DNA of 64,000 nucleotides. Origin: Phycisphaeraceae bacterium. Its GTDB lineage: Bacteria > Planctomycetota > Phycisphaerae > Phycisphaerales > Phycisphaeraceae. The stretch is taken from NCBI GenBank assembly GCA_028284155.1, contig JANQSF010000079.1, forward strand, positions 55,684-119,683, in the 5' to 3' direction. Both the position numbers and the translations under genes were made by a program. Positions within the stretch are counted from its first letter, which is position 1, and each line of letters begins with the position of its first letter. Positions 10,166 to 64,000 of the stretch are shown here, piece after piece. The notes beneath the pieces were generated by a model. That model searched no databases. It worked only from the letters and a program-made list of their open reading frames with translations, and was not told the DNA's origin.

Positions 10166-10169
10166 GGCC

Positions 10170-11352: not shown

Positions 11353-12147
11353 TCAGAAATTGAAGATCGTGTCGAGCACCGCCGGGATCAGGCCCTTTTT
11401 AGTCGACTTGCGCAACTCGCCCGTGTGCTGCTTCACCAGCCGCATGCCGAACAATTGCGACGAGAGCACGGTGTTGTCAGCCGTGATGTCGTCCTTGCGG
11501 CACGTACCGGTCAGGGTCATCATCAGCCGTTCATCGTCGTTCTGGATGTACTTGCGCGCCTCGATCACCAACGTGCCGTTCGGTTTCACGTCGATGATGC
11601 GGGCGGTAATCCGACTCGTGAACGTGTCACGTCGTTTGTAGTCGCCCTCGCCCTCGAACGCACGCTCAAACGACACGCCGATCTTCGGCGGGTCTTCGCT
11701 GGCGCTCGATGGACGCAGTTGGAATTGCAGCAGGTCCTTGAGCTGCAGCGACGGAAAGTCATCGATCGAACCCTTCAGGTCGTATGACTTCTCCGTCTCC
11801 AACTCGCTAGTCGCGCCGACGTCGGTCGACTCGCGCACAATGATGGTGACCAGGTCGTGCACGGCGAACTTGCGCGGCTCGGGCAGGTGCACCGCCATCA
11901 GACTGACACGCGCAATGCCGGGCGAAAGACGGTTCGGCCGACGCCCCGGCGAGGGCAGCGGCCGCACCGGTTCTTCGCGGGCTGTATACAGCGACGACGA
12001 ATGCCTGCCGTCGATCGTCCAGACCGGCCCCGCGGCCGCTCTCGGCTGGCGGCGATCCGCCGCCTCGCGCCGACCTGACTGAGCGTCGACATCGCAATGA
12101 ATGGCCAGCGGAACAAACAAGGCAAAGATGACGAGTTTCTTGTTCAT
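11353..12147 (-). CDS. flgH: Flagellar L-ring lipoprotein
   Basis: N-terminal signal sequence. Conserved C-terminal region ITARIIDVKPNGTLVIEARKYIQNDDERLMMTLTGTCRKDDITADNTVLSSQL typical of FlgH. Confidence 0.88.
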   Translation of the reverse strand: MNKKLVIFALFVPLAIHCDVDAQSGRREAADRRQPRAAAGPVWTIDGRHSSSLYTAREEPVRPLPSPGRRPNRLSPGIARVSLMAVHLPEPRKFAVHDLVTIIVRESTDVGATSELETEKSYDLKGSIDDFPSLQLKDLLQFQLRPSSASEDPPKIGVSFERAFEGEGDYKRRDTFTSRITARIIDVKPNGTLVIEARKYIQNDDERLMMTLTGTCRKDDITADNTVLSSQLFGMRLVKQHTGELRKSTKKGLIPAVLDTIFNF

Positions 12148-12210
12148 GGTTCGCCTTTGGCTGTACGTTTCGGTTTACAAAGCAGCGGTTGGTATGACGT
12201 CGTTTGATCA

Positions 12211-13350
12211 TTACTGCCGACTTGGCGACAACGCCGCGGTGCGCTGCGGCAAGCCGTCGGACGGATGGCTGCCGATCACCATCGTGGCCCTGCTACGCCC
12301 GGTGAGCGTGACGGCGAACGACTTGCGCGACCGCTCGTTGCGGACCTGGATCACGTCGCCGACCGCGCCCGCTTCGAGGGCACGCGCAACGGTCGTCACA
12401 CGCAATGCGCCGCCCACGCACTCAATGGTCAATAGCTTCCCGCGTTCCACAGCGATCGGGAGAGCCAGGTGCGACGGCTCGACCAGCATGTCACGGCGCA
12501 GCGACGCTACCGCGCGCAACCCGATCGCCTGTTCAACCTCCGTCAAGGGCACGACGTGCGCGTGCTCGATCGTGAGCGCTCTTACTTCCAAGTCGCCACG
12601 CGCCACGATCTGGCCGCGTGGGATCGCTCGCTTGACCACGACGGCCAACACATCGCGCTTGACCGTGGCCGAAACACGCGACGTATCCACGAGACGGCCT
12701 TGTCGGTAACGCCGAATCGTGATCGGGATTCGGCCCAACCGGCCGCGTGACTGCGAGTTGATCTCGATCCGGTCGCCGTTGATGCTCGCATGAACGGTCG
12801 CGGCATCGTGGTCGGCGAACGTGACCGACACGTCGTCTGCGTTGCCACCTGCCAGGTCCTTCAAGAATTGGATTACTTTGGCGCCCACGGTCAGTTTGCT
12901 GTCGAGCTCGATCGGTGCGGCCGGGTTTGCCGCTGCCGGGCCGGAGGGTGTGCGATCCGATCGCTCAACGACCGGCTCGACCTCAACCCTGGCCGGTGCG
13001 GCGTGACGATCGACGACGCACTGGCGGAATCCCCCCAGCGAGATCCGGGCCCAGTTAACTTTCCGCTCTGACAGGACGCGACGGACATCGTCGAGAGAGA
13101 TCCGGACCGACTGAACGGCCGGCAACGCGCTGAGAACGATCGTGTCTCCGAGCGCCTCAGCCTGTGCCCCCTTCAATGTGGCGATGTCGCGCAACCGAAT
13201 CTGAGTCGATTCAATGGCCACACGGTGACGCAGCGCAATCGTGTCAGCCGACACCGATACAGCGCAGCAGAGTGCGACCAGCGCGCACGTCAGGCGATGG
13301 GTACAGGTTTTGACAAGATGCAATCGGACTGGGGAGTCGTAAGGCCGCAT
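12211..13350 (-). CDS. flgA: Flagellar P-ring assembly chaperone FlgA (long form)
   Basis: SAF-like segment (RAIPRGQIVARGDLEV) and C-terminal GAVGDVIQVRNERSRKSFAVTLTG, the characteristic FlgA end. N-terminal signal peptide. Confidence 0.8.
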   Translation of the reverse strand: MRPYDSPVRLHLVKTCTHRLTCALVALCCAVSVSADTIALRHRVAIESTQIRLRDIATLKGAQAEALGDTIVLSALPAVQSVRISLDDVRRVLSERKVNWARISLGGFRQCVVDRHAAPARVEVEPVVERSDRTPSGPAAANPAAPIELDSKLTVGAKVIQFLKDLAGGNADDVSVTFADHDAATVHASINGDRIEINSQSRGRLGRIPITIRRYRQGRLVDTSRVSATVKRDVLAVVVKRAIPRGQIVARGDLEVRALTIEHAHVVPLTEVEQAIGLRAVASLRRDMLVEPSHLALPIAVERGKLLTIECVGGALRVTTVARALEAGAVGDVIQVRNERSRKSFAVTLTGRSRATMVIGSHPSDGLPQRTAALSPSRQ

Positions 13351-13428
13351 GGGGGGTCCTTTGCTTCAAGGGGCGCGGCGGGTCGTTCGGTGACGCGGTG
13401 CGTCGTTGTCGAGTCGCAATCATCTGGG

Positions 13429-13887
13429 TCAGGCGGTCGTATTCAGAGGCATCGCAGCGGGGCTTGATTCAATAGCAGTCTGGTTGACATCCGCGTAGCT
13501 GTGCGTCGTTCGGCTCGGCCGTGCCGGCTGTGGTGTGACTTGGCCCGCCGACGCGGGGCAATCGCCGATCGGGCTGACGGACTCGCTCAACGGAGTCATC
13601 AGCCGAGACGCGATTGCGCTGAGGCCAGTCTCGTCTCGCGAACCGGGCGCGATCAGCCGGGTCAATTCGGCGAGTACCTGCAACCGACGTCGCTCCAGAT
13701 CGCAGACCTGTCGCACACCCGGCTCAGCCGCGCGGCAACACGCGGTCAACTCAGCCGGCGGCGACGAGCGCATCGCGTCAAGTCGGCGGACCAGCATCGC
13801 CACGACGGAACGGTCGTCGCGCAATTCGTCGCGTAAGAGCTGCTCGAATTGTCTGTTCAGGTCGTTCATCACGTCATGGCCCCCCAT
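13429..13887 (-). CDS. FlgN-like protein (paralog 2) between flgG and flgA
   Basis: LDAMRSSPPAELTACCRAAEPGVRQVCDLERRRLQVLAELTRLIAP aligns with LEAMRQAKRETLADCCRRENDLVQAIGELEKRRLTLVAVLTQTLDP of ORF 9283-9786. C-terminus looks disordered. An alternative ATG lies at 13869. Confidence 0.5.
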   Translation of the reverse strand: MGGHDVMNDLNRQFEQLLRDELRDDRSVVAMLVRRLDAMRSSPPAELTACCRAAEPGVRQVCDLERRRLQVLAELTRLIAPGSRDETGLSAIASRLMTPLSESVSPIGDCPASAGQVTPQPARPSRTTHSYADVNQTAIESSPAAMPLNTTA

Positions 13888-13909
13888 GCGTTACGGGTCA
13901 ATCACTTGC

Positions 13910-14725
13910 TTAGAACCGTCGGAGGTTGCTGATAACCTGCAGCGCCTCGTCGGCGGTCTGGATCGTCTGACTGTTCATCTCGAAAGCGCGCTGCGTCTTG
14001 ATCAACGACACGAGTTCGCGCACGGAGTCAACGTTCGAGGCTTCGAGGTGTCCAAAGAGGATTCGGCCAATCGAACCCTCATTGGGCGTGCCGGTGATTG
14101 GCGGGCCGGAAGAAGCTGACTCGGCAAATAGGTTGCCACCGAGAGGGCGCAGGCCGCCCGGGTTAACAAAATTGGCCAATTCCAGTTGCCCAACTTGCTG
14201 AAGCCCACTCTCGCCCCGGACCTGCACGTTCACGATGCCGTCCTGGCTGACAACGACCTTCTCTGTGTTTTCCGGCACGGCGATCGGCGGGTCCAGCAGC
14301 GGGCCGTCCGACGACCCGAGCACGATGTTGCCGTCGCGGTTAATCAGAAAATTGCCGGACCGCGTATAGCCGATGCCGGTCTCGCTCTGCGCGTCGGCGA
14401 TGCGGACCTGAAACAAGCCCGGACCGTCGATCATCATGTCGACCGGACCGTTGGTCTTGATCGCCGCGCCGTTGCTGAAGTCGAATTGCGTATTGCTGAT
14501 GCGCGTGCCAAGACCCACGTAGAGCCCGGACGGGCCCGACGCTTCAGTCGTGGGCGTCTCGACGCCGGGTTGACTCTTCTCCTGGTAGAGCAGGTCTTCA
14601 AAGTTGGCGCGCGACGCGCGAAAACCCAACGTGTTCGCGTTCGCCAGGTTGTTGGCGATGATGTCGATCTCGGTCGAGAGCGCCGAGAGCGCGGTCGCCG
14701 ATGAATGTAATGCTGTAATGGCCAT
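13910..14725 (-). CDS. flgG: Flagellar distal rod protein
   Basis: MAITALHSSATALSALSTEIDIIANNLANANTLGFRASRANFEDLLYQ and C-terminal LEASNVDSVRELVSLIKTQRAFEMNSQTIQTADEAL. Confidence 0.92.
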   Translation of the reverse strand: MAITALHSSATALSALSTEIDIIANNLANANTLGFRASRANFEDLLYQEKSQPGVETPTTEASGPSGLYVGLGTRISNTQFDFSNGAAIKTNGPVDMMIDGPGLFQVRIADAQSETGIGYTRSGNFLINRDGNIVLGSSDGPLLDPPIAVPENTEKVVVSQDGIVNVQVRGESGLQQVGQLELANFVNPGGLRPLGGNLFAESASSGPPITGTPNEGSIGRILFGHLEASNVDSVRELVSLIKTQRAFEMNSQTIQTADEALQVISNLRRF

Positions 14726-14737
14726 AGAAAGTCAGCC

Positions 14738-15520
14738 CTATGCGGAGACTCGGCCGAGCGTGTTGATCGCGCGGTCCATCGTCTGGTCGTGGTAACGGAT
14801 GAGGTTGGCGTTGCCGGTGACGGCCTTGGCCGCCTGAACGACTTTGAGCATGGCCTGGATGGCGTCGACCGCGCTGCCCTCGACGAACCCCGCGCGGATG
14901 CTCGTGTCGGCCGCGGCCGTGCGCGGGTCGCCCGGCTCCAGCGACTTGAACAGACCGCTGCCCTGCTTGATCAGTTGATCGCGATCATTGACCGACGTGA
15001 CCTGGATGCGACCGACCGATTCGCCGTTCTGCATGACGTGACCGTCAAGCTGAATCGACACGTCCGCGCCGCTGGCGATCACGATCGGCTGATCGCCCAC
15101 GCCCAGCACGGGGTGGCCGCCGGTGGTGGTTACCAGCGTGCCATCGGACGCCCGGCTGAAACGCCCGTCGCGCGTGAAGCGCAGTTCGTCGCCCGTCGCG
15201 CCTTCGACCCGCGTAACGAAGAACGTGTCGGGCGACTCGAGCATCGCGTGGAGTTGGTTGCCCGTGTTCTGGGCGGGGCCGATACGGAAATCGACGTGCT
15301 GCGGGCCGGCCAAGACGCCGCCGCCAAGTTTGTCGAGCAACGCGTGTCGCACGTCAATCCCGAATCCGCCTTCGACGGATTCGGGGTGTCGCTGGTGAAC
15401 GGCCGGCCGATCGGGCTTGAAGCCGATCGTGTTGACGTTCGCCAGATTGTTGGCAAAGACGTCCTGGCGGTACATATTCGTCAGGACGCCTGAGGCGGAA
15501 AGATACAGGCCGTAGTTCAT
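14738..15520 (-). CDS. flgF: Flagellar proximal rod protein FlgF (FlgF/FlgG family)
   Basis: MNYGLYLSASGVLTNMYRQDVFANNLANVNTIGFKPD and C-terminal VEGSAVDAIQAMLKVVQAAKAVTGNANLIRYHDQTMDRAIN. The ATG at 15520 is preceded by AAGGAGGTG. Confidence 0.88.
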   Translation of the reverse strand: MNYGLYLSASGVLTNMYRQDVFANNLANVNTIGFKPDRPAVHQRHPESVEGGFGIDVRHALLDKLGGGVLAGPQHVDFRIGPAQNTGNQLHAMLESPDTFFVTRVEGATGDELRFTRDGRFSRASDGTLVTTTGGHPVLGVGDQPIVIASGADVSIQLDGHVMQNGESVGRIQVTSVNDRDQLIKQGSGLFKSLEPGDPRTAAADTSIRAGFVEGSAVDAIQAMLKVVQAAKAVTGNANLIRYHDQTMDRAINTLGRVSA

Positions 15521-15843
15521 CGACGCACCTCCTTGTGAGTCGCCTCCGCAACGCCGCCGACCTCCGCGCATCCGTGCCCTTGAATGGCGTCAACCGTGAC
15601 GCCTGTGGGGGCGGTCGGGGCGTGTCGGGTGTCATCCGACTGGAGCGTTGGAACCACAGCCAACCGGTCGAGTCCTTCCAACCGGAACGGCACTTTCCGA
15701 GCAGAATGAGTATCGCAGCCCGCATCTAAACTGGCGGCCTCGCACATGTGGGCGGCGGCCGCCAATCGCGCCAAGCGGTTCAACGTTTGGCCGAGGTGCT
15801 CGTCGCCGGACTCGCGGAAGATGTCGAGGATGCGTTGAGCCAT
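15517..15843 (-). CDS. Possible small ORF (108 aa) whose TGA overlaps the flgF ATG (ATGA)
   Basis: MAQRILDIFRESGDEHLGQTLNRLARLAAAAHM... has a helical-looking N-terminus, but the C-terminal half has poor coding character. The only positive evidence is the ATGA overlap with flgF. Confidence 0.25.
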   Translation of the reverse strand: MAQRILDIFRESGDEHLGQTLNRLARLAAAAHMCEAASLDAGCDTHSARKVPFRLEGLDRLAVVPTLQSDDTRHAPTAPTGVTVDAIQGHGCAEVGGVAEATHKEVRR

Positions 15844-21410: not shown

Positions 21411-23939
<2,529 letters not shown>

Positions 23940-24331
23940 GGGAACCTCATTCCGTTGGAGTTCTTGGTACAGCGTACTCGAAACGCGGTGGGATCCTTTG
24001 GGGCGCCAACGGTCGTTCCATCGGTCGCGGCGGGTTATCGGCTCGCAATCATAGACGTTGGTCCACGACGCGTAGTTCGCGCCGCGCGACCCCCTGTCCA
24101 AGGTGTGCACTTTTGATGCCAGCCGGGCAATTGCTGTGACATAAGGCCCTTATCGGTTCAGAACGCCCGCCGCTCGCCAACGAACGCCGTTCCTAAACGC
24201 AGATGGCGGCGTGCAACGGATGCACAACCTTGGCCGATCGTCTGCCAGTGTGGCGTAAACGCCACAGCGGTGTGCCAATAAACGGGCGATTCCACCTGTA
24301 ATTCGCCAGATCCACCAAAACGACTGTCGAT

Positions 24332-50137: not shown

Positions 50138-51553
50138 TCAGAATTCCGCATGCCCCGGCGTCCGTGGGAACGGGATGACGTCCCGAATGTTCGCCATGCC
50201 CGTCGCGTAGAGGATGGTCCGCTCGAAACCGAGTCCGAACCCCGCGTGCGGGACAGTGCCATACCTCCGCAGGTCGCGGTACCACCAGTAGTCGTCCTGG
50301 TTCAGGTCCATCTCAGCCAAGCGAGCGTCGAGCACGTCGAAGCGTTCTTCGCGTTGCGACCCGCCGATGATCTCGCCGATGCCGGGGGCGAGCACGTCCA
50401 TGGCGGCGACAGTCTTGCCGTCGTCGTTCATGCGCATGTAGAACGCCTTGATGTCCTTGGGGTAGTCCATCACGACGATCGGTCTGCCGACGTGTGTTTC
50501 GGTCAGCCAGCGTTCGTGCTCGCTCTGCAGGTCAACGCCCCACTGGACAGGGAACTCGAACTTATGACCCTTGGCGGCCGCGCCTTCGAGCGCCGCAATC
50601 GCGTCGGTGTAGGTCATGCGCTCGAAGCTGGCGTCGACGAACGACTCTAATCGGGTGATGCATTCCTTGTCGATGCGCTGCGCAAAGAACGCCATGTCGT
50701 CGCCGCGCTCGTCGAGCACGGCCTTAAAGATGTACTTGAGGAAGTCTTCGGCCAAGTCGGCGTCGGCCGCGAGGTCGGCGAACGCGATCTCCGGCTCGAT
50801 CATCCAGAACTCAGCCAGGTGTCGGCTGGTGTTGCTGTTTTCCGCTCGAAAGGTCGGCCCGAAGGTGTATACCTTGCTCAGCGCCATGCAGTACGTCTCG
50901 ACGCTGAGTTGCCCGGAGACGGTCAGGTGCGCCTCCCGTCTGAAGAAGTCGCCGGCAAAGTCGGTCTTGCCGTCGGCCGTGGGCACGTCGCGCAGGTTGG
51001 CCAAGTCGAGCGTTGACACGCGGAACATCTCGCCCGCCCCTTCGCAGTCGTTGGCCGTGATGATCGGCGTGTGCACCCAGTAGAAGCCGTGCTCGTGGAA
51101 GTAGCGGTGCACGGCCATGCTCAACGCGTGACGGACGCGCGCCACCGCACCGAACGTGTTCGTCCTCGGCCGAAGGTGCGCGACCTCGCGCAGGTACTCG
51201 AACGTGTGCCGTTTCGCCGCGACGGGGTACGTGTCCGGGTCGTCAACCCAGCCGACCACCTCGACACTGTCCGCCTTGATCTCGACGTTCTGCCCCTTGC
51301 CCTGCGACTCGACCAGTTCACCCGACACGACAGCCGAACAGCCCGTCGTGATCCGAAGGACGTCGCTTTCGTAGTTATCCAGTTCATTGGGCACGACGGC
51401 TTGCACGTTGTCGAAACACGACCCGTCGTTGATCTGCAAGAACGACAAGCCGGCCTTCGAGTCACGCCGCGTACGCACCCAGCCGCGCACGGTCACACGG
51501 GAACCCACGGAAGCTCGGCCGGCCAACACATCACCAACGGAAACGGTCTGCAT
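50138..51553 (-). CDS. asnS: Asparagine--tRNA ligase
   Basis: N-terminal OB domain ([26 protein letters not shown]). Class II motifs [21 protein letters not shown] and [12 protein letters not shown] at 51553. Confidence 0.92.
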
Positions 51554-51725
51554 CACATGTGTCCTGATCGGGATTGACCCGCACAGTGTAGACCGTCTGA
51601 CTGAACTGTTGTGACCGCGGTGTCTGCCTGCAAGACGGCCTGCGACGTGCCGTCGTTTGCCGTACAATCCGCCCCGCTCGATCCAACGTCGATCGACCTG
51701 ATCCTCCTGGCCTGTCGCTCGCCCC

Positions 51726-52502
51726 ATGGAAGTTCTGATCTACGACAACTACGACGCGATGTGCGCCGCCGCCGCGGCCGCGGTCGTCGAAACGCTCAAC
51801 GCCAAACCGAACGCCGTGCTCGGCATGGCGACCGGCTCGACGCCGCTGGGCGTGTACCGCGAACTCGTCCGCCTGCACCGCGAGGAAGGCCTCGACTTTT
51901 CGCAGGTTACGACTTTCAACCTCGACGAGTATGTCGGCCTCGGCCCGAACCATCCGCAGAGCTACCACCGTTTCATGCGGGAACACTTTTTCGACCACGT
52001 CAACATCCCGCCGCAGAATGTCTACATCCCACACGGCACGACCAGCAACGCGCCGGCCTTCTGTGACTGGTACGAGCAGCGTATCAAGGACTGCGGCGGC
52101 ATCGACCTGCAGATCCTGGGCATCGGGACGGACGGGCATATCGCGTTCAACGAACCGACCTCGTCGCTCGGGTCGCGGACGCGCATCAAGACGCTTGCGA
52201 AACAGACGATCGACGACAACGCCCGATTCTTTGACAACCGCGACGACGTACCGAAGTATGCGATCACGATGGGTGTCGGAACGATTCTCGAAGCGCGACA
52301 GATCGCGCTGCTGGCGGACGGCTCCAAGAAGGCGGCGGCCATTGCATCGGCCGTGGAGGGGCCCATTACGAGCATGATCACAGCCAGCGCCCTGCAGTGG
52401 CACGCCAACACGCAGGTGTACGTCGACACCGCCGCGGCCGGCGCACTGACCATGACCGACTACTACCGGTGGATTCAGGATCACAAACCGGGCGCGCCGT
52501 AA
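51726..52502 (+). CDS. nagB: Glucosamine-6-phosphate deaminase
   Basis: [26 protein letters not shown] and [13 protein letters not shown] are canonical NagB motifs. Confidence 0.92.
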
Positions 52503-52556
52503 AACCGTTTCGTTCGACAACCGCCACGGTAGCGACCCACCGGGGAGCCTCTGCCG

Positions 52557-55169
52557 ATGGACGCCCGGCCAAGCGATGTCCAACAAACCGAGCAGGACAA
52601 GCCGCGGCAACTGGGCCCCGTCGTCGCGGTGCTCATCGCGTGGATACTCGGCATCCTGCTGGGCAACGCGTTCGGCGGCGTCTCCTTCTGGCTGCTCGCA
52701 GGCGCGTCGAGCCTGGCACTCGGTTTGATGGTTTATTGGCGGCTTCGACATGTGCCGCACGTCGCGCGTTTCGCCATCCGTTTCTTCGCCATGATCGCCG
52801 CTGGATGTGCCGCAGCGGCGTGGCACAATGTGCGCGTCGAACGCATCGCCGACGACCACATCGCACATTACCTCGACGAGACGTCCCAACTGGCGCTCGT
52901 GACGGGCGTCGTCGATTCGCGTGTCAACCTGAACCCGCCGCAACGCGGCGCGTTTGCGTCGTTCACCTACCAATCGCCCGTCACCATGTTCGCGCTGCGG
53001 GTCGACTCGATCGTCGTCGACGGTCGCCCCGTATCGACGCGCGGGCGGCTGTTCGTCAAGGTCGAGCAGGCTGACCATCGGTTGCGCGAAGGCATGTACA
53101 TCGAGGCGGTGGGTTGGCTCGCGGCGATCGGCGGGCCGAACAACCCCGGCGAACTCGACTACCGGAGGATCATGGCCGACCGGGACATCGACGGCAGACT
53201 GACGCTACGCCGCCGCGGCAACTGGCGGGTGATCGAAGGCGAGCGGAGCCGATCCTTAACCTCCACGCTCGCGTCGTGGCGTCGCGCGTTACGCGACGAG
53301 GCGGCGGCGGCGCTCCACGCGGGCCTGCCGCCGGGTGAAGAACGCCGCGCGTTTCTCGACGCCCTGCTGATTGGCAGGCGCTCCGGCGACGCGGGCGAAT
53401 TGAGCGATGCTTTCCGCCGCGTCGGCTTGGCGCACCTGCTGTCGATCAGTGGCGCGCACCTGGCGATCCTGCTCGGCCTGACCTGGCTGGTCGTCAAGCT
53501 GTTCGTGCCGAACCCGCGCCGGTCGGCGGTCGTGGTCGGCGTTGTCCTGGTGTTCTACCTGTGCATCGTCCCGGTGCGTGTGCCGATCCTCCGCGCGGCG
53601 ATCATGGCCGGCCTGTTCTGCGCCGCTTACGGCTCAGGCCGACTGGTCAGCGGCACGAGGTTAATCGCGCTGGCGGCGTTGATCGTCTTGATCTGGCGGC
53701 CGGGCGACTTATTTACGGCCGGCTTTCAACTCAGCTTCGGCGTCGTCGCCGCCCTGCTCGCGTTCGCCGACCCGCTGAGCAAGCGGCTTTCGCCCGAGCC
53801 GGAGGTGCGCGTCCATGGCGACCGCACTGCCCACACGGTCGCGCGATTCATCGTCGGCTATTTCGCGGCCAACATCGTCGCGTTCCTGGTGGCCTGGCCG
53901 ATCGTCGCGTACCACTTTCAACTGATTAGCCCGTTGACCGTCGTGCTGTCGCTCATGGCGTTGCCGGTCGTCACCGTCGTGCTCGGGTTCGGCTACCTCA
54001 AGGTGATCGTCGGCATGGCCCTGCCGACGGTCGGCAAGCTGTTGGCCGGCCCTCTCAGTTGGTCAGCCGACGCCATGACGGGGCTGGTCGAACACGCCGC
54101 GACGTGGCCCGGCGCGGCCGTCGAACTCAACCGTACCCCTTCGTTGGTCTGGCTATTGGCCACGCTCGGCGTGACCCTTGCCTGGTTCACCGGCGCGCTG
54201 CGCGGACGTCGTGTCACGTTGATCTGCGCTCTGCTGGCTTGCGTGGCCTGGCTCTTCGTGTCCGACCGCGGGCTCTGGTTCCGCACATCGTCCAACGCCG
54301 CCAATCCGCCAGGCGATCGCGCCGCATTGCGTATCAACATGTTCGCCGTCGGTGACGGCTCCTGCTATCTCGTCCGCGTCGATGACGCTCAACGATCCGG
54401 GATCGGGACGGGCCAAGCCGCTCGCACACTGATGTTCGACTGCGGATCACAGGCGTTCTACGACGTCGGCCGACGCAGCGTCGCGCCCGCGTTGCGACAC
54501 ATGGGCGTGTCGCACCTCGACATACTGGTTCTGTCGCACGCCGATCTCGACCACTTCGGCGGTGTGCTCGACGTACTCGACGCCGTGTCCGTCGGCCAGG
54601 TGTACGCGCCACCGCAACTGATCGCAGAGGCGAACGACAGACCCGACGGGACCGCGGCATTTCTCGTTGACCGTTTGCGTGAGCGCCGCGTTGTCATCAA
54701 GCCCATGACGCGCGGCTGGCAAGCCGACTTGGGCTACGCCCAACTAAGCACGCTCTGGCCGCCGGCCGACCTCGAACCCAAGCGTGCGAACGACTCCTCA
54801 ATAGTCCTCTCCATCCGTACGTCGAACCGCCGGCTGTTACTGAATGGCGACATCCAGCAGGACGCGATCGAGTCACTGCTTGAACTCGAAGTCGACTTGA
54901 AGGCCGACGTAACCGACCTGCCGCACCACGGGAGTTTCGTCGATGCGTCACTCCAGTGGTTCAAGAGTGTCCAACCGCAGGTCGCATTGCAATCATCGGG
55001 ACCGACCCGGCTTTATAACGACCGTTGGCGCGACGCGTTTGAAGACGCTGACGCGACACGGCTCATCACTGCACGCCACGGCATGGTCGAGGTTCGGATC
55101 AGCCACGACGGCACCATATCCTGGTCGACATTTCGCCCTCGGCCAGGGACGATTCATGCCGATCCGTGA
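52557..55169 (+). CDS. comEC: DNA internalisation-related competence protein ComEC/Rec2 with metallo-beta-lactamase domain
   Basis: Multi-TM core (GLAHLLSISGAHLAIL). C-terminal LVLSHADLDHFGG and DLPHHGS beta-lactamase-fold motifs. 870 aa. Confidence 0.88.
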   Translation: MDARPSDVQQTEQDKPRQLGPVVAVLIAWILGILLGNAFGGVSFWLLAGASSLALGLMVYWRLRHVPHVARFAIRFFAMIAAGCAAAAWHNVRVERIADDHIAHYLDETSQLALVTGVVDSRVNLNPPQRGAFASFTYQSPVTMFALRVDSIVVDGRPVSTRGRLFVKVEQADHRLREGMYIEAVGWLAAIGGPNNPGELDYRRIMADRDIDGRLTLRRRGNWRVIEGERSRSLTSTLASWRRALRDEAAAALHAGLPPGEERRAFLDALLIGRRSGDAGELSDAFRRVGLAHLLSISGAHLAILLGLTWLVVKLFVPNPRRSAVVVGVVLVFYLCIVPVRVPILRAAIMAGLFCAAYGSGRLVSGTRLIALAALIVLIWRPGDLFTAGFQLSFGVVAALLAFADPLSKRLSPEPEVRVHGDRTAHTVARFIVGYFAANIVAFLVAWPIVAYHFQLISPLTVVLSLMALPVVTVVLGFGYLKVIVGMALPTVGKLLAGPLSWSADAMTGLVEHAATWPGAAVELNRTPSLVWLLATLGVTLAWFTGALRGRRVTLICALLACVAWLFVSDRGLWFRTSSNAANPPGDRAALRINMFAVGDGSCYLVRVDDAQRSGIGTGQAARTLMFDCGSQAFYDVGRRSVAPALRHMGVSHLDILVLSHADLDHFGGVLDVLDAVSVGQVYAPPQLIAEANDRPDGTAAFLVDRLRERRVVIKPMTRGWQADLGYAQLSTLWPPADLEPKRANDSSIVLSIRTSNRRLLLNGDIQQDAIESLLELEVDLKADVTDLPHHGSFVDASLQWFKSVQPQVALQSSGPTRLYNDRWRDAFEDADATRLITARHGMVEVRISHDGTISWSTFRPRPGTIHADP

Positions 55170-57041: not shown

Positions 57042-60000
57042 TCACCGGCGCAACTGATCGAGAATCACCGGGTCCTGGATGTCCTGATCGCGTGCCAGCA
57101 TCAGCACCTTCGAAATGACCTCGGCCGTCCGTGGGTCGTCGTCGGCAAATGGGAGGAACAGCCGACCCCGATGTTGGGCGTGGACGGGAACGACGCACAG
57201 CGCGCCGCCGGGCATCTTGTGGATCCCGGCACTGCCCAGGTGGACTGAATACTGCCCCAAATCGCCGTCGACCATCGCGTGCGGCTCTTTGAGTCGGACG
57301 TTGTCGATGCCGAGCAACTGGCAGGTCTCACGCAGCAAGGTCGCGCGCATCTCGACCGTCGATGCGCTGGCCTCGGGGTCGACCCCGCCGCGGTGCGCGA
57401 CGCTGACCACCAGGTCCATGTCGCGCATGATCTCGCTGAAGATGCGCGGCGGCACGTCGGCAAACTGCAAGGCGTGCCGTTCGTCGCGTTTGAAAAAGCG
57501 GACACACTCAATGGTCAGGCCTTCGACTTCCAGCGGCGTCGTCACGCCGTAATCGAACTCGACCGACGCGGTGACGCCCACGTCGTAGAACGTTTTCCAA
57601 ACCCCGTCCTGCGTGCCCCACCCGCGCTGCCCCCACAGCGCGTTGGCCTGCATCGGGTTGACCTGCTGGCCGGCGTAGCGGCGGGTCTTGTTGCCGTCCG
57701 ACCTCTCCTGCTTGGTCAACACGTAAAGCTCGCGGAATACCTGCTTGAACGGTTGCAGCCGCTCGGCGGCGAAGCACTCATGCTGCCACTTGTCCCATCG
57801 GCCCGTCTCGAACAGGTCGTACGCGTGCGCAATGCGCAGCGCCTCGTTCTTCTTGATCGGTTCGAGTTTGCCGGCGTGGTCGCGTAGCACCTTGCCGCCT
57901 TTGTCCGGGTAGCCCATGATGCCTTCGCCGATGAACACCAACCGACTGACCAGCGGCGCGAGCACGGCGTGCGCGCTGATATCAACCAACTCCGGTGCGG
58001 TGAACAAGTCGCCGCGGCACATCGCCGTTTCCAACGACTGCCGCATACGCGATGCCTGCCGCTTCAATTCCTTGACCCGGTCGGCCAACGCGGCGATCTT
58101 CTTGTCCTTCTTCTTGATCTTGGCGGGCAGCGTTTTCAACGTCTTTTCGCCGCGCGTCACGGTCAGGCTCGGCCGAGACGCCTCGTCGAGCGCGAGCGTC
58201 ACCGTGTAACCGTCTCGCTCGACGGCGACGGGCCCGTCGGCCAGGTCCTTGACCGCCTCGGCCTCCATCGCCCATTCCAGCCGCAGCGGGTCGGGGTAGC
58301 CGACCGTGCGCGCCAGGTTCTGCATACCGACCTCGGCAGAACGCACCGCGTCTTCCTTCGACATGGCGCTGAGCTTGTTCGCGTATCGCCGGTATTCGAG
58401 CAGCACCTTGTAACGCGTGGCGATGTCCGAGTCCCGCCGCGTCCCCTTGGCCAACGGCAGCAGGCCGAGCAGGCGGACGTACTCTTTCAGGTTGCGTTGC
58501 TTGATGCCGTCGATCAGGAACTTGCGGCTGACCCGGCCGAGCAACACGTCGGCGACCAGTTGAGCCCGCTTGGCCTGCGCGGCCGTGGCGGCGAAACGCG
58601 CAGCCGACGACATCGCTTCCCAGCGTTTCTTGGTGAGCCGTTTGTACACACGTTGGAACCAGTCGATGTCGACAGCGCCGCCGCGGCGGTCTTCATCGGT
58701 CAGTGGGGTGCGCTCCATGATGAGGCGGTCCCAGCCCGATCGTTGTTGTTGGGTGTCCTGTTCGTCACCGGCTGAGTCGTCGTCGCCGACACCCGCGCCG
58801 ATGGCGGCGCGTTCGCCGGCGTCGTAGATGTAGTTCATGTGCGCCAGCAACCAGTACACGCCCTCACAGAACCCGTCCCACTTGAAGTAGGCCTCAACAT
58901 GCCGCGACCATTGCGGGGCCAGAAAGGCCAACTCCAGGACGCGTTGTTCGTCGATATGCCCAGCCTTGACGGCCGCCCCCACGTCGTGGGCGAACGACTC
59001 GGGCGTGTCGTCTTGGCCGGCATAACTGACCTCGGCCAAGTGCGTCAGCGTCGCGACCCGGCCGTAGTGCGCGTCGCTATAGTAGCTGGCCGACGTCTTG
59101 TATCGCTCCTTACCGAGCGCAGTGAGGACGCGCAAGAGATTGTCCACACCGCGGACGGCCTGCAGGCTGTGTGCGGCCTGGGTTGCGGCGGTCGCTTCCT
59201 CACCGCGGGCCAACTCAACTTCCAGGACGCGGTCACGGCAGCGATTGACGACCTCGTGCAACTGCGGGCATTGTTCGAGATAGCCGCCGTATTCACGGGT
59301 CAGGTTCACCCGCGTCAGCATCCGCAGTTCGTCGAAACCGTCGTTGTAGCCCGCCAATCCGCGCGGGCCCAGGACATGGTCGTACACATCGGTCAGGTTC
59401 GCCCCATCGGCGGCATAGGCGTCTAACAAGACGTTAAGCCCGGGCCGATCTCGCTTCGCGCCGCGAATCGGTTCGTCAGCCCAGTGGCCCAGTTGCCAAC
59501 AACGCACTTGCTGCTCCGGCGTCATGCCACACTCGACGAGGCCGCTGATCATGAACAACTCACCAAACCACTCGCTAATGGGCCCGCCGTTTCGCCAGTC
59601 GTAGGGTTGATCGCCTTCGACCTCATTTTCATAGCGACCGGACGGCGCATCGGGCCGGGCCAGGTCCTCGACCGCGTTGGCGGGCAGGATCGCATAGGCC
59701 GTCTCGACGGCGTCCAATAGCCAATCCACCGCCGCGTTCGGCTGTTCCCAATAGACCAGCCATTCGACAATCTCTTTAACTTCACACTCGTATCGCAGGT
59801 CCGGCGGCTCGTGTCCGCCCGAGACAGCCCGCAGGTAGTCGGCGTAGCCCGGCCGCTTGGCCAAATCCTGCCACGTCCGCCACTCCCAGTTGCTGATGCG
59901 CGTCAAGATGTGAGCGCGGACGATTTCGAAGCCGTCACCGTCCTTGAGCTTACGCTTGCGTTTATCACGCCACTTCTCCCAGACCTGCTGTAGCGGACAC

Positions 60001-62117
60001 TCGCGGTCGCTCGCTGACGGAGCCTTGTGCCACTCGGGCGACGGGAAACTCCACCCAAGATTGCCCAGCAAGTGCCGCTCGTTGTTGCCCTCGTAGTTGA
60101 CGATGGTGACTACTTCCTCGCGGTGCTCGTGCACGAGGTCGTCCAACGACTTAAGACACGCAACGGCCGCGTCGGTGATGAACTTGACCTTCCGCTTCTT
60201 GGGCGGGACGACGGGCGTGCGATCCGCCAGATCGAAGAGGCCGAGGCCGTTTTCGAGTGTGAGCTTTTCCGCGCCGACGTTGTTGATCGCGTCGAGTTGT
60301 GTGGTTTCGTCGTTGGTCAGCTTCTTGCGCGAATCGGCATAGGCGGCGGCGCGCTGCCGGCATGCGTCGCGTGCGCGGTCGTCCTCAGCTAACTGACGCA
60401 GCATTTCCAAACCGGCCAGCCGTTGCGGCGCCTTGCCCGATTCGAGCAACCGGTCGGCGCTGGCCAACGCACCGTCGTCGTCCTGCACCAGCAGCAGGCC
60501 GATCACCCCGCGGCGCAGGTCGCTGGCCTTGCGTGTGAGCATGGCTTCCAACCGGGGCAAGTCTTCGTCGCGCAGGGGCTTCTTCGCCAGCGCGGTGATC
60601 GCCGCCTGACGCGCATCGGGCGACGTGTCGCCGGCAAGGGACACCAGCGCGTCGTGCGTGAGCTTGTCCCACTTCTTCTGCTCGGCCAACGCTTCGACAA
60701 TCTGTCGCCGCATCCACCCGTCGAACGCCTTGATGTATGGCAGGATGCGGGTGGCCGGCCGATCGCCGAGCATGTAATACATCTTCAACGCGACCTGCTT
60801 ACGGTCGATCGTCACGGTGACCCAGGGCCAGATCAGCGGCTTGGGCTTGTGCGCTTTGGCGGGCGTGCGCTCGTAGAGGCGTTCGAGTTTGTCGAACACG
60901 TCCTCGTCGGTAGCGCCCGGCCCCGGGTCGTGGACAGCCGGGAGGGCGCTGTACGCGACGCGCAGGTCTTCGTCGTCCAACGCCTTGGCGAAGTCCGGGC
61001 TGACAAACGGCGCTTGCATTTTCGCGAAGTGGTGCGCGGCTGCGAAACGGTGTTCCACACTCGGGTGATCAAGCAGTTCGAGCGCCGCCACAGCCGACTC
61101 GACCGCGTCGTCGAACGCCATCACCCACAACGCCATGAAGACCTGCTCCGCGTCGTCGCCCTTGAGCGCCGCATGGCAGGCGGCGGGGTCATCCAACATC
61201 TCCGCGGCCGACGCGATCGTGTCGTTGACGGTTTTGACCGTGGCAGAGTCCCACGCCAGGCCGAACCAGACGTCAACCGCGCGCGTCACGGCGCTGAACC
61301 GAGCCAGTTTGTGGTCGATGATGAGCCGGAGCATCCGGCGGAACGCCTGCGGGTGCGCTTCGTCGATCGTTTCGAGAACGGCTTGACGCAGACCCTCCTG
61401 ACGCTGCGCAGCCAAGAGTGTCTTTTCGATCAACTCCCAGCCCTCGGGGCGCGACGCCGAGAGCAGGCCGCGGATGACGTGCGCACCCATGCCGCCGATC
61501 TCGTGCTCGTTGCAGGCCGAAGCGGTCAGGATCTCAAACACCTCGTCAGCCACCGGCCCGCCCGCGTCTATCGCGCCGGCGAGCAGTCGGCCAATCGTGT
61601 CCTGCTCCCGACCGTAGTACTCGTCTAAGAACGGCGCCCAAGCGGCCAACCACGGGCAGGTGACGATGTCGGCTTGATATCGTGACGTCAATCCGAACAA
61701 CGACGAAGCCCAATCGCAACGCGCCTCCAACGGCGCGCCCGGGAAGGCCGGCGTGCGGAACGCCTTACGCACGTAGCCGCCGGAGTACGGGGCGCGCTTG
61801 AGCAGTTCCCACGCGGCGTCGACCTGTTCGGCGATGTTGGGGAACAACGCGCCGAACAGCTTCGCGCGCTGCCGAGCGCCCAGTTCGTCCACGCGCTCGC
61901 GTGCGGCGGCGGCCATGTTGTGCCGCTCCTCCCAGTCGTCGTGCTCGAACTCCGAGCCGTCCGCGTCTCGGCCGAACAGGGCGTACCCCGCGGCGCACGC
62001 CTGCTTGGGCAGCTTCTTCAGGATTGGCGAGTACCGAAACCATGCCGGGTCGTCCGTGTCGTCCTCCGATAAACGCCACGCCTTGAGCCGCTCCTTCGCC
62101 ACGTCCGGTTTAAGCAC
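57042..62117 (-). CDS. 1691-aa cytoplasmic helical-repeat protein with DUF4132-like C-terminal module (MolR/YehI-like); function unknown
   Basis: No signal peptide or TM segment, and no nucleotide-binding or catalytic motif that I could spot. HEAT-like repeats (SPDARQAAITALAKKP). C-terminal LKTLPAKIKKKDKKIAALADRVKELKRQ, LVSRLVFIG, QPFKQVFRELY and terminal LPFADDDPRTAEVISKVLMLARDQDIQDPVILDQL resemble DUF4132 proteins from memory. GTG start with a GGAGG SD. Confidence 0.8.
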   Translation of the reverse strand: MLKPDVAKERLKAWRLSEDDTDDPAWFRYSPILKKLPKQACAAGYALFGRDADGSEFEHDDWEERHNMAAAARERVDELGARQRAKLFGALFPNIAEQVDAAWELLKRAPYSGGYVRKAFRTPAFPGAPLEARCDWASSLFGLTSRYQADIVTCPWLAAWAPFLDEYYGREQDTIGRLLAGAIDAGGPVADEVFEILTASACNEHEIGGMGAHVIRGLLSASRPEGWELIEKTLLAAQRQEGLRQAVLETIDEAHPQAFRRMLRLIIDHKLARFSAVTRAVDVWFGLAWDSATVKTVNDTIASAAEMLDDPAACHAALKGDDAEQVFMALWVMAFDDAVESAVAALELLDHPSVEHRFAAAHHFAKMQAPFVSPDFAKALDDEDLRVAYSALPAVHDPGPGATDEDVFDKLERLYERTPAKAHKPKPLIWPWVTVTIDRKQVALKMYYMLGDRPATRILPYIKAFDGWMRRQIVEALAEQKKWDKLTHDALVSLAGDTSPDARQAAITALAKKPLRDEDLPRLEAMLTRKASDLRRGVIGLLLVQDDDGALASADRLLESGKAPQRLAGLEMLRQLAEDDRARDACRQRAAAYADSRKKLTNDETTQLDAINNVGAEKLTLENGLGLFDLADRTPVVPPKKRKVKFITDAAVACLKSLDDLVHEHREEVVTIVNYEGNNERHLLGNLGWSFPSPEWHKAPSASDRECPLQQVWEKWRDKRKRKLKDGDGFEIVRAHILTRISNWEWRTWQDLAKRPGYADYLRAVSGGHEPPDLRYECEVKEIVEWLVYWEQPNAAVDWLLDAVETAYAILPANAVEDLARPDAPSGRYENEVEGDQPYDWRNGGPISEWFGELFMISGLVECGMTPEQQVRCWQLGHWADEPIRGAKRDRPGLNVLLDAYAADGANLTDVYDHVLGPRGLAGYNDGFDELRMLTRVNLTREYGGYLEQCPQLHEVVNRCRDRVLEVELARGEEATAATQAAHSLQAVRGVDNLLRVLTALGKERYKTSASYYSDAHYGRVATLTHLAEVSYAGQDDTPESFAHDVGAAVKAGHIDEQRVLELAFLAPQWSRHVEAYFKWDGFCEGVYWLLAHMNYIYDAGERAAIGAGVGDDDSAGDEQDTQQQRSGWDRLIMERTPLTDEDRRGGAVDIDWFQRVYKRLTKKRWEAMSSAARFAATAAQAKRAQLVADVLLGRVSRKFLIDGIKQRNLKEYVRLLGLLPLAKGTRRDSDIATRYKVLLEYRRYANKLSAMSKEDAVRSAEVGMQNLARTVGYPDPLRLEWAMEAEAVKDLADGPVAVERDGYTVTLALDEASRPSLTVTRGEKTLKTLPAKIKKKDKKIAALADRVKELKRQASRMRQSLETAMCRGDLFTAPELVDISAHAVLAPLVSRLVFIGEGIMGYPDKGGKVLRDHAGKLEPIKKNEALRIAHAYDLFETGRWDKWQHECFAAERLQPFKQVFRELYVLTKQERSDGNKTRRYAGQQVNPMQANALWGQRGWGTQDGVWKTFYDVGVTASVEFDYGVTTPLEVEGLTIECVRFFKRDERHALQFADVPPRIFSEIMRDMDLVVSVAHRGGVDPEASASTVEMRATLLRETCQLLGIDNVRLKEPHAMVDGDLGQYSVHLGSAGIHKMPGGALCVVPVHAQHRGRLFLPFADDDPRTAEVISKVLMLARDQDIQDPVILDQLRR

Positions 62118-62119
62118 GG

Positions 62120-62548
62120 TCAGCCTCCCGCCAGAAGAGTGAGTCGGATGAATGTGATTCGGCTGTCGGGCTTGAGGAACAACTCGCGGTCGAGGTCGCG
62201 TTGGTCCTGCTCGTCGACGGCGACCAGGTAGATGCCGTCCTCGAACGCCTGTATCGCGGCCGCCACGGCCTCGTCAACGTCCTGCACGCCGACATCGCTG
62301 CCGCCGGACTCAATCTTGCCTTGGTCGGCAGCCTGCTCGATCTGCCGCGCGGTCAGGACGCGGAAGACCGTGCGGTCCTCCTGCCGCTTGACGAATGCCT
62401 CGACTTCGTGCCGAACGACGTGCTCGATGATCTGCCGCAGTGTCACGCCACCGCCTTCGTGCATCGAGGGCGGCGGCGGGATCGCGTGATCGGCAAACAA
62501 GGGACGCTTGCGCCCCAACGCCCGGCCGGTGATCGTGACGGTTGACAT
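62120..62548 (-). CDS. 142-aa hypothetical protein ending in Gly-Gly; possible beta-grasp (ThiS/MoaD/ubiquitin-like) C-terminal half
   Basis: ATG at 62548 preceded by GGGGA. C-terminus GIYLVAVDEQDQRDLDRELFLKPDSRITFIRLTLLAGG-stop. The stop lies 2 nt before the start of the 1691-aa gene. Confidence 0.6.
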   Translation of the reverse strand: MSTVTITGRALGRKRPLFADHAIPPPPSMHEGGGVTLRQIIEHVVRHEVEAFVKRQEDRTVFRVLTARQIEQAADQGKIESGGSDVGVQDVDEAVAAAIQAFEDGIYLVAVDEQDQRDLDRELFLKPDSRITFIRLTLLAGG

Positions 62549-62778
62549 GCGATTCCCCTGGAGCGGTGTCCGCTCAGTTTACCGTTTGCTCGTCGGGTCT
62601 CAAACGACTCGACACGGTCGGGCTCCAATCCTGCAACGACGTCGTGTCCACCGTACCGCGAGGGGAAATGCACCCGCCTATCCCCGTGCGTTGTTGAGCG
62701 ATCAGGGAGTGTATTTCGACTTCGCTCACGGCTGTGACGGCCCCGCGTCAGCCGATACAATGGAGTTGAGGAAACCAA

Positions 62779-64000
62779 ATGAACGCTCGGTTGGTTGCTT
62801 TTTTCGTGGTCTTGCTTGGCGCGCTGGCGATGGCCGGCGGCAATTGGGCGACTGCTGCGCCGCCGTCAAAGAGCGAGTTCATCAACTTGGTGGATCAGCA
62901 TTGCACGGGTTGCCACGACGCCGACTTGAAGAAGGGTAAACTCGATCTGGATTTGCTCCTCGATGCCCAGGTCGCGAAGCATGCTTCCGTTTGGGAGCGT
63001 GCGCTGCGCAAGATAGACGCGCGACACATGCCGCCGATCGGGAAGAAGCGACCGTCGGAAGCCGAGTACCGCCAACTAACTTCGTACCTCGTCGCGTCGC
63101 TTGACGCGGCCGCCGAAGCACACCCAAATGCCGGACGCACGGACACGTTCCGTCGCCTGAACCGGACCGAGTACCAGAACGCCATCCGCGACCTGCTCGC
63201 GCTGGAGATCGATGCGGCGTCGCTGCTGCCGCCTGACGAGTCGAGCCACGGCTTTGACCACATCACGGTCGGCGACCTGTCCCCGGCGCTGCTGACGCGT
63301 TACGTCAGCGCGGCGCAGAAGATTAGCCGACTGGCCATCGGTGCGCCGCGCAGCGAACCGGACGGCGTGACCTACCGCATCCCTCCTGACGTGACGCAGG
63401 AGAGCCACGTTCCCGGGCTGCCGTTGGGGACGCGCGGCGGCGGGCTTTGGCGGCACCACTTCCCACGCGACGGCGAGTACGAGATACAGATTCGGCTGAC
63501 GCGCGACCGTAACGATGAAGTCGAAGGACTCAACGGCTCGCACCAACTCGAGGTGTTGGTCGATCGGGCGCGGGTCGCACAATTCACCGTCGCCCGTCCC
63601 AAGAAACGCGCTGCGAATCACTTTGACGACACGAAGTTGAAAGCGCGATTCAAGGCCAAGGCCGGCCCGCGCGACCTGGGCGTGACCTTTGTCCGCAACG
63701 GGCGATCGCTTGAAGAGACCAAGCGTCAGCCGTTGAACGTGCACTTCAATCTTCATCGCCACCCGCGACTTGGGCCGGCGATCTATCAGGTGTCGATCAT
63801 CGGGCCGTTTCACGACAAGGCCGACGACAACCCGTCCTTTACGCAGACGCCCAGTCGCAAGCGTGTCTTCATCGCCGATGCGAAGGACGATGAACAGGCC
63901 GCCGCACGCACAATCATTCAAACTTTGGCACGACGAGCCTACCGACGACCTGTCACCGAACAGGACATGAAGCGCCCGATGGTCTTCTTTGCCGAGGCGC
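62779..64000 (+). CDS. DUF1587/DUF1592-type planctomycete cytochrome-c-motif protein (3' end outside the window; not in the ORF track)
   Basis: My translation from the ATG at 62779 gives MNARLVAFFVVLLGALAMAGG... It contains CTGCH, FRRLNRTEYQNAIRDLLALEID...GFDHI (DUF1587-like) and TLARRAYRRPVTEQDM (DUF1592-like). The frame is open to position 64000. Confidence 0.85.
   Translation, partial: MNARLVAFFVVLLGALAMAGGNWATAAPPSKSEFINLVDQHCTGCHDADLKKGKLDLDLLLDAQVAKHASVWERALRKIDARHMPPIGKKRPSEAEYRQLTSYLVASLDAAAEAHPNAGRTDTFRRLNRTEYQNAIRDLLALEIDAASLLPPDESSHGFDHITVGDLSPALLTRYVSAAQKISRLAIGAPRSEPDGVTYRIPPDVTQESHVPGLPLGTRGGGLWRHHFPRDGEYEIQIRLTRDRNDEVEGLNGSHQLEVLVDRARVAQFTVARPKKRAANHFDDTKLKARFKAKAGPRDLGVTFVRNGRSLEETKRQPLNVHFNLHRHPRLGPAIYQVSIIGPFHDKADDNPSFTQTPSRKRVFIADAKDDEQAAARTIIQTLARRAYRRPVTEQDMKRPMVFFAEA

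Follow-up and report, generated by a model that had tools for sequence, protein, structure and literature searches.

Ubiquitin-like conjugation operons such as Bil, Bub, CBASS Cap2/Cap3, SAMP/UbaA and TtuB/TtuC place the genes for an activating enzyme (E1), with or without a conjugating enzyme (E2), and for a JAB peptidase or deubiquitinase next to the gene of the ubiquitin-like protein. What is conjugated is a small beta-grasp protein (or target protein) with a C-terminal Gly (Gly or Ala in CBASS) and a reactive free carboxylate. The pair of genes considered here lies in a 64,000-nucleotide stretch of DNA from a Phycisphaeraceae bacterium (contig JANQSF010000079.1), hereafter referred to as the window, and consists of a small gene and, directly downstream, a giant gene whose product carries the domains DUF5724, DUF4132, and DUF7737. 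A first-pass annotation of this DNA had described a small open reading frame (ORF) of 142 amino acids (aa) ending FIRLTLLAGG-stop, which coordinates and translation bear out (...YLVAVDEQDQRDLDRELFLKPDSRITFIRLTLLAGG-stop). It had taken this end for a ThiS/MoaD/ubiquitin-like signature, with the reservation that the two Gly codons might only serve translational coupling to the giant gene. We consider it probable, at roughly 60%, that the small protein is a dedicated small subunit which docks its Gly tail into the DUF4132-DUF7737 core of the giant, in a module that is probably stress-related.

The synteny of the small gene with DUF4132-DUF7737 proteins is obligate. In the window as well as in the other loci the small gene directly precedes, in the same orientation, a DUF4132-DUF7737 gene, and the pair is retained in Planctomycetota, Verrucomicrobiota, Anaerolineales, Deinococcus, Bacteroidota, and Novosphingobium. 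When all ORFs within the ±10-kb flanks of 81 loci were compared by all-against-all BLAST, the small gene and the giant gene were the only families common to the loci; the other neighbours vary from locus to locus, no third gene is conserved, and a conserved gene for an E1, E2, JAB, or sulfurtransferase is likewise lacking in the flanks. The partner comes in two architectures. Besides the giants, short partners of 841–869 aa with DUF4132 and DUF7737 and without DUF5724 are found in Chondrinema, Fulvitalea, and Novosphingobium, and the small genes directly 5' of these end LTPLVGG, LVSLVGG, and LTPLKGG and match the family hidden Markov model (HMM) at E = 1e-15 to 1e-21. Because these short proteins also have a small GG partner, DUF5724 is dispensable for pairing, which makes the shared C-terminal core the partner-defining element and the likely site of contact. 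No small partner is present beside a short DUF4132+DUF7737 gene of Chondrinema at another locus (L094) or beside the Burkholderia and Escherichia coli DUF4132 genes, and neither the giants nor the yeh locus, when searched, contained the small domain in hidden form.

The junction of the two genes in the window reads GCG GGA GGC TGA CC GTG, and the observation that the Gly codons double as the Shine-Dalgarno (SD) sequence of the giant gene is confirmed. The GGAGG provides translational coupling to the giant gene, and the terminal GG might then be merely a by-product of this requirement, the tail having no role at the protein level. The window itself, with its GGAGG 6 nt from the GTG, fits such an explanation, as do all 44 loci in which the giant starts at most 4 nt away: each of them encodes the first Gly by GGA or GGG and so has a GGAGG or GGGGG ideally spaced from the start codon. 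These 44 belong to a set of 66 GG-tail loci in which both the stop of the small gene and the start of the giant were located. In the other 22 the giant starts 16–690 nt away, yet the residues are still GG, and in 19 of them the first Gly is encoded by GGC or GGT, codons that were found in none of the 44 tightly coupled loci (Fisher p = 9e-14, a value that overstates the evidence as related loci are counted as independent). The pattern recurs in several clades. The D. ficus pair is tightly coupled and nevertheless uses GGC GGC, and the short-type pairs of Bacteroidota, a phylum that makes little use of SD sequences, keep GG both with a 143-nt spacer (Fulvitalea) and with a 1-nt spacer (Chondrinema). 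The three residues preceding GG and the exact position of the stop are likewise conserved. Since GG persists with GGC or GGT where the giant starts far away, it is selected at the protein level: the tail residues are under selection in their own right beyond any SD need, and wherever small gene and giant gene are tightly coupled the synonymous Gly codons have been secondarily recruited as the SD of the latter. GG is thus kept independently of downstream spacing or SD, the worry that it is a by-product of translational coupling is refuted by GG encoded with GGY codons at distant spacing, and a tail without a role of its own is very improbable.

The small family is broad. There are 665 homologues at E ≤ 1e-3 in a 90%-identity collection, and all 120 listed homologues of these end GG, are 59–70% identical, and are 141–145 aa long, with few deviating in length through mis-called starts. 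A HMMER scan of 1.84 billion cluster representatives at 50% identity gave at least 802 matches, 327 of them at E ≤ 1e-10, and the family is found in six phyla: Planctomycetota, Verrucomicrobiota, Chloroflexota (Anaerolineales), Deinococcota, and Bacteroidota, together with one alphaproteobacterium (Novosphingobium). As the loci used for the codon comparison were found by a scan with a pattern (alignment A1) that includes ...LAGG, GG tails are over-represented among them, and the unbiased census of tails therefore rests on 135 listed representatives at 50% identity with an intact last strand. The tail is exactly x-G-G in 108 of these (80%); the first Gly is retained in 133, the stop follows directly after G-G/A in 123, two have GG with one additional residue, and the remainder have other or longer tails. 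The consensus is hydrophobic-L-[A/V/S/T]-G-[G/A]-stop, and the constant feature is an F-x-R-L strand followed by x-x-L-[A/S/V]-G, one small residue, and the stop. GG is the dominant and not the universal form of the tail.

Some members of the family deserve separate mention. One planctomycete metagenome-assembled genome (JADLFN01; L040 and L042) has two copies of the module on separate contigs, and both small proteins end LAGA (codons GGA GCC), 1 nt 5' of the ATG of the giant. On pFA1 of Fulvitalea axinellae (L092) two divergent modules lie head to head, at 3481–6620 (−) and 6995–12683 (+). The first encodes a 128-aa small protein (LVSLVGG) and an 869-aa DUF4132+DUF7737 protein, and the second a 157-aa small protein (LAGSTY) and a DUF5724-type giant, so that both tail types and both partner architectures occur in one genome. 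No fusion of the small domain ahead of the giant was found among the matches listed. In P0224 (257 aa) residues 5–116 match residues 8–113 of the small protein, and a WGR-like C-terminus (...TTTWGRIGSNGQSKTKTF...) replaces the last strands and the GG tail; either the fusion is genuine, or a frameshift or an error of assembly has produced it. In P0235 (227 aa) the first ~119 residues of the small protein run straight into the very C-terminus of a giant (FADDDPRTAEVLSKVLLLARDAEIRDPNILEWIR...), as might result from internal deletion or from chimeric assembly spanning the two-gene module.

The structure of the small protein was predicted with AlphaFold2 (AF2) from an alignment of 116 sequences. 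The model contains strands at residues 4–10 and 21–23, helices at 37–64, 67–73, and 91–103, strands at 107–111, 114–116, and 130–135, and the tail. A Foldseek search of the Protein Data Bank (PDB) gave Urm1 (7q5n_G, probability 0.90), MoaD (1fm0_D), Uba4-bound Urm1, and MOCS2A (5mpo) as top matches, with target-normalised template modelling scores of 0.52–0.62 (0.62 for 5mpo), and SAMP1, SUMO, FAT10, ISG15, ubiquitin, and ThiS as further matches. The structure prediction thus returns, with moderate confidence, a beta-grasp of the MoaD/Urm1 kind with ubiquitin-like neighbours. This agrees with the published prediction for the D. radiodurans protein DR_A0165, reported to resemble PDB entries of MoaD, MOCS2A, SAMP1, and Urm1 (PMC9650054); five of the ten PDB codes given there (5MPO, 1WGK, 6JBZ, 6JC0, and 2L52) are also among the matches here, from which 3PO0 and 1VJK are absent. 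At the sequence level the small protein has no match in Pfam or NCBIfam (E ≤ 1), comparison of the family profile with E. coli MoaD and ThiS by hhalign gave non-significant probabilities below 1%, both proteins reach no better than E~0.2 with the family HMM, and a sequence-profile search of the PDB returned nothing beyond chance L20 matches. As no sequence-level relationship is detectable, the protein is taken as MoaD/Urm1-like in fold and not as a member of PF02597. The signature seen by the first-pass annotation is therefore supported by the predicted fold and the conserved Gly-Gly, and not by a ThiS or MoaD profile match or by the Foldseek E-values (see below). A family-specific insert holds the invariant G77 within a G-K-[I/V]-x-x-G-G loop and is a candidate for contact with the partner.

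In the giant, which matches DUF5724, DUF4132, and DUF7737 above the Pfam gathering thresholds (641.9, 140.8, and 124.2 bits), the best conserved part is DUF4132 plus DUF7737, with many invariant His, Asp, Glu, Arg, and Gln residues. Across 120 listed homologues this core is 54–76% identical and has about 35 invariant, mostly polar residues; the homologues listed include records from Cyanobacteria, Cytophagales, Anaerolineales, and Gemmatimonadaceae. The AF2 model of residues 1285–1691 is a confident one, with a predicted local distance difference test (pLDDT) score of 88.7. The loop HRGRLFLPFADDDPRT is the most conserved stretch of the giant across phyla and yet the one disordered segment of the core model. 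The combination of invariance and disorder is unusual and suggests folding upon binding, and we infer that the loop is a candidate docking site for the small subunit. The giant has no match to the PDB by sequence, and its conservation map shows no conspicuous HExxH, P-loop, or GxGxxG motif. WGR domains are present in close relatives of the giant (P0284, P0288, P0338, and P0355).

The D. radiodurans orthologues of the window pair are DR_A0165 and DR_A0166 on chromosome II (tblastn; 36.9% identity and E = 4e-11 for the small protein). DR_A0165 has 134 aa, matches the family HMM over residues 2–134 (E = 1.8e-44), ends LTALAGG, and is followed after a 2-nt spacer by a DUF4132 giant whose core is ~50% identical to that of the window giant. 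A DdrO site found by chromatin immunoprecipitation sequencing and a radiation/desiccation response motif (RDRM) at −83 have been reported for DRA0165, depletion of DdrO leads to strong de-repression, and mitomycin C leads to IrrE-dependent induction of the DRA0166 protein (PMC8533742). The RDRM palindrome TTATGCTATTTACATAA is seen upstream of the D. radiodurans pair, where positions 7904–7923 of the locus (L089) read GGTTATGCTATTTACATAAC, ~80 nt 5' of the DR_A0165 ATG and matching the published listing (PMC8533742), and a similar palindrome, TTCTGCTATTTACAGAA, is found in D. ficus. DR_A0165 has also been studied as the “sORF peptide” SEP068184: the protein level rises upon gamma irradiation and H2O2 treatment, H2O2 is tolerated better by the knockout and less well by the complemented strain, and Trx1 (DR_A0164) is the partner in a reported pull-down (PMC9650054). 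SEP068184 was held to be Deinococcus-specific and to lack an RDRM (PMC9650054); both claims are contradicted, by the homologues in at least six phyla and by the palindrome. As the Deinococcus pair is a DdrO/IrrE-controlled operon induced by DNA damage, the module most likely acts in the genotoxic or oxidative stress response, and by analogy a stress role may be supposed for the window organism. The surroundings of the D. radiodurans pair (L089, 6329–15781) contain two genes of the YeeE/YedE sulfur-transport family and trxC on the 5' side, and a DUF99 gene together with genes for molybdate transport (modA and the ABC permease next to it) on the 3' side. This sulfur and molybdenum flavour is suggestive and is not conserved in D. 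ficus (L090).

Most probably, then, the 142-aa protein is a dedicated, translationally coupled small subunit of DUF4132-DUF7737-core proteins and is produced stoichiometrically with the giant, a partnership favoured by synteny across six phyla and 1–4 nt coupling. Its beta-grasp body would dock on the conserved core of the giant, as MoaD does in MoaE and ThiS in ThiG/ThiF, and the flexible, side-chain-free tail (hydrophobic-L-A-G-G with a free carboxylate) would thread into a narrow conserved pocket of that core, giving a physical complex with the tail inserted. A number of observations weigh against this proposal. The tail is not uniform: 15 of the 135 representatives (11%) end exactly x-G-A, and longer tails of the form G-[S/R]-x-[W/Y] set apart one clade, the Bacteroidota partners of DUF5724-type giants, with LSGRLW in Bacteroides finegoldii, LAGSTY in Fulvitalea, and LAGSIW in Chondrinema, at spacers of 37–100 nt (L091, L092, and L093). 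The idea that the terminal GG is invariant in orthologues thus nearly holds for the first Gly and fails for the last, the variable or extended ends named beforehand as counting against a carrier-like tail do occur in part, and a single docking geometry would have to tolerate the GA as well as the G-[S/R]-x-[W/Y] tails. The small-protein model is of moderate confidence (mean pLDDT 71.5, 80–89 in the core), with values below 50 at residues 60–84 of the insert and 140–142 of the tail, and the Foldseek E-values are weak (≥0.065), as is to be expected from the ~35-residue insert. The core model gave no meaningful structural analogue in the PDB or BFVD by Foldseek, for which reason no pocket can be named and no E1, E2, JAB, ATP-grasp, or other enzyme fold can be assigned to it. 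In the upstream regions of 79 planctomycete loci no shared palindromic operator was found, any 5+5 palindrome occurring in at most two loci, and stress regulation has so far been shown in Deinococcus only. Finally, the published co-immunoprecipitation (co-IP) recovered Trx1 and 156 other proteins (PMC9650054), and a search for DR_A0166 in its supplementary tables, which use identifiers of uncertain format, was negative.

An alternative of lower probability, though still a serious one, is that the small protein serves as a genuine sulfur carrier or ubiquitin-like modifier, its GG being adenylated by an unlinked, shared E1 of the MoeB/ThiF/TtuC type. Its thiocarboxylate would give sulfur to a reaction catalysed by the core, or it would be conjugated to lysine like the SAMPs and TtuB, the giant being the cognate sulfur-using enzyme or a target-selecting scaffold. 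Carriers adjoin their cognate effector in MoaD-MoaE, ThiS-ThiG, and TtuB-TtuA, and one E1 encoded elsewhere can serve several carriers, as do Thermus TtuC and Haloferax UbaA. Such a role agrees with the predicted MoaD/Urm1/SAMP-like fold found here and previously (PMC9650054), with the exact stop after G-G/A, with the lack of small-giant fusions among the matches listed, with the enzyme-like set of invariant polar residues in the core of the giant and the nucleic-acid-binding WGR domains of its relatives, and with the historical link of DUF4132 proteins to molybdate utilisation (MolR; cited in PMC8533742). It is more difficult to reconcile with the 81 loci and the scanned ORFs of the window, where no conserved E1, E2, JAB, or sulfurtransferase gene accompanies the pair, or with the missing ThiS/MoaD profile match. 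A terminal Ala in ~11% of the clusters and the Bacteroidota tails are atypical of sulfur carriers, the longer tails would require a processing protease, of which none is seen, the giant has no recognisable nucleotide-binding motif, and moeA and moeB are not co-induced in D. radiodurans (PMC8533742). One could also imagine that the small protein, induced by stress, is a modifier or sulfur donor and that the structurally novel DUF4132-DUF7737 core, in place of a classical E1, activates its carboxylate, which we regard as unlikely. It would amount to an E1-independent ubiquitin-like or thiocarboxylate system, and, given that the family is associated with WGR domains and DNA ligase and is controlled by DdrO and, as reported, by LexA, such a system would act on damaged nucleic acid or repair proteins.

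It has further to be considered whether the small protein acts alone, as a negative regulator of antioxidant capacity through thioredoxin binding, its link to the giant being merely transcriptional. The H2O2 phenotypes of the DR_A0165 knockout and complementation and the Trx1 pull-down (PMC9650054) are in line with this, trxC lies directly 5' of the pair in D. radiodurans, and thioredoxin or TlpA genes are found within a few kb in Chondrinema and Fulvitalea. A trx gene is however not a conserved neighbour, as only the small gene and the giant gene recur in the 81 loci and the D. ficus pair has no adjoining trx. The 157 co-IP proteins suggest low specificity, the premises of that work (a Deinococcus-specific protein without RDRM; PMC9650054) are contradicted by the data here and by PMC8533742, and synteny across six phyla is left unexplained. 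We accordingly give this explanation a low probability and prefer the dedicated small subunit. The features of the pair are collected in Table 1.

Table 1. Features of the two-gene module, in window coordinates.
Feature	Position	Strand	Remarks
Small gene	62120..62548	(-)	142 aa and TGA stop; ORF, translation, homologues, AF2/Foldseek
Giant gene (1691 aa, GTG start; DUF5724 + DUF4132 + DUF7737)	57042..62117	(-)	Pfam
DUF5724 region, HEAT repeats (residues 69-1284)	58266..61913	(-)	moderately conserved scaffold
DUF4132 (residues 1325-1500)	57618..58145	(-)	Pfam
DUF7737 (residues 1588-1689)	57051..57356	(-)	Pfam
Near-invariant loop HRGRLFLPFADDDPRT of the C-terminal core	57126..57173	(-)	pLDDT ~39, predicted disordered in monomer
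GTG start of giant gene	62115-62117	(-)	
GGAGG, Shine-Dalgarno-like, from both Gly codons	62124..62128	(-)	6 nt 5' of the GTG of the giant gene
Codons of flexible tail L-L-A-G-G	62123..62137	(-)	residues 140-142 low pLDDT
Family-specific beta-grasp insert, about 33-35 residues (58-90, DRTVFRVLTARQIEQAADQGKIESGGSDVGVQD)	62279..62377	(-)	low-confidence prediction
Upstream intergenic region of the two-gene operon	62549..62779	(-)	no operator common to other planctomycete loci found

The surroundings of the pair in the window are housekeeping in character and not those of a defence island. The ORFs scanned encode flagellar proteins, ClpB, MutL, tRNA synthetase, and typical planctomycete PSCyt/DUF1501 proteins. 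A flagellar block with two flagellin-like genes and genes for FlgK, FlgI, FlgH, FlgA, and rod proteins of the FlgF/G type occupies positions 2875–15571 (−), a DNA N6/N4 methylase gene lies at 391–1398 (−), and the ClpB gene at 21411–24110 (−). The earlier statement that the window has no E1-like enzyme or JAB peptidase holds for 40 scanned ORFs of at least 200 aa, among which neither ThiF/E1, E2/UBC, nor JAB was found; a few ORFs of that length (e.g., 51531..53078, −) and all shorter ones lie outside this set. ThiF/E1, E2, and JAB are also missing from the pair itself and from a Logan contig with the same protein (low-coordinate flank of ~10 kb and ~230 bp upstream); the PSCyt/PSD annotation of that contig is for a gene opposite in strand to the window's 62780+ ORF.

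A few neighbours in other loci may be recorded. In only four of the 81 loci examined, for example in the Gemmataceae loci L002–L004 at ~15.9–17.2 kb, the giant is closely followed on its 3' side by the gene of an ATP-dependent DNA ligase that has WGR at its C-terminus, which hints at a link of the module to DNA repair. In one locus only, from Anaerolineales (L086, 17491–20432), a Wadjet JetD_C/DUF2399 gene and an SMC-like JetC gene are found ~2 kb 3' of the module. On a plasmid of Burkholderia sp. FXe9 (L096, 1–6927) a short DUF4132 gene, which has no small GG partner, is situated ~3.5 kb 3' of moaE and moeA. This proximity may be a coincidence, though it recalls the old label of MolR as “molybdate metabolism regulator.”

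Proteins with DUF4132, among them E. coli MolR and YehI and D. radiodurans DRA0166, are of large size and wide distribution and have been reported in the DdrO and LexA damage regulons. In the searchable literature no functional study of DUF4132/DUF5724/DUF7737 or YehI/MolR/WGR proteins was found beyond two reports, of which one describes the fold resemblance of a single member (PMC9650054) and the other the Deinococcus operon (PMC8533742). Neither discusses the Gly-Gly tail or the general DUF4132-DUF7737 pairing (PMC8533742; PMC9650054), and we did not find in the searchable literature the breadth of the family, the conserved Gly tail, the interplay of codon choice and SD, the obligate DUF4132-DUF7737 pairing in two architectures, or the absence of E1, E2, and JAB. 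A small partner with a selected Gly-Gly tail would be the first concrete, testable biochemical handle on the DUF4132-DUF7737 subgroup, and the bacterial repertoire of ubiquitin-like and sulfur-carrier-like proteins gains a cross-phylum family that has neither annotation nor Pfam model and comprises at least 802 clusters at 50% identity, in an operon type without an E1, E2, or JAB gene. The locus is also a clean natural case in which the codon choice of a conserved Gly-Gly is recruited as SD only when the genes are coupled, and the published view of the Deinococcus member as genus-specific and RDRM-less is corrected.

In contrast to DR_A0165/DR_A0166 the window pair resides in a planctomycete-type genome for which a DdrO/IrrE system is not known, and a search for an RDRM-like operator found none. 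DUF4132 is common to the window giant and to E. coli MolR (YehF/YehH) and YehI (YehLMPQ cluster), whereas YehI has neither a Pfam DUF7737 match nor DUF5724, and the MoxR, vWA, and SWIM neighbours of the E. coli yeh DUF4132 proteins with WGR are absent beside the window pair. No homologue of the small protein was found at the E. coli DUF4132 locus; YehK was considered as an equivalent small partner and rejected, since its sequence is unrelated and it has no GG end. Unlike ubiquitin-like conjugation operons the pair has no linked E1, E2, or JAB gene, and no PADLOC model matches the small protein or the giant. From MoaD, MOCS2A, Urm1, and SAMP1 the small protein differs by its size, which is about twice that of MoaD, as the first-pass annotation had remarked, by a lengthened b1-b2 loop and a conserved insert of ~35 residues, by the lack of detectable profile similarity or of a linked E1-like enzyme, by a last residue that is Ala in ~11% of the clusters and a longer tail in Bacteroidota, and by a partner that is DUF4132-DUF7737 and not MoaE, ThiG, E1, or a sulfurtransferase. 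What it shares with them is a predicted beta-grasp with a hydrophobic last strand and a flexible Gly-Gly tail with a free carboxylate, and a gene that adjoins, and is translationally coupled to, that of a far larger cognate partner.

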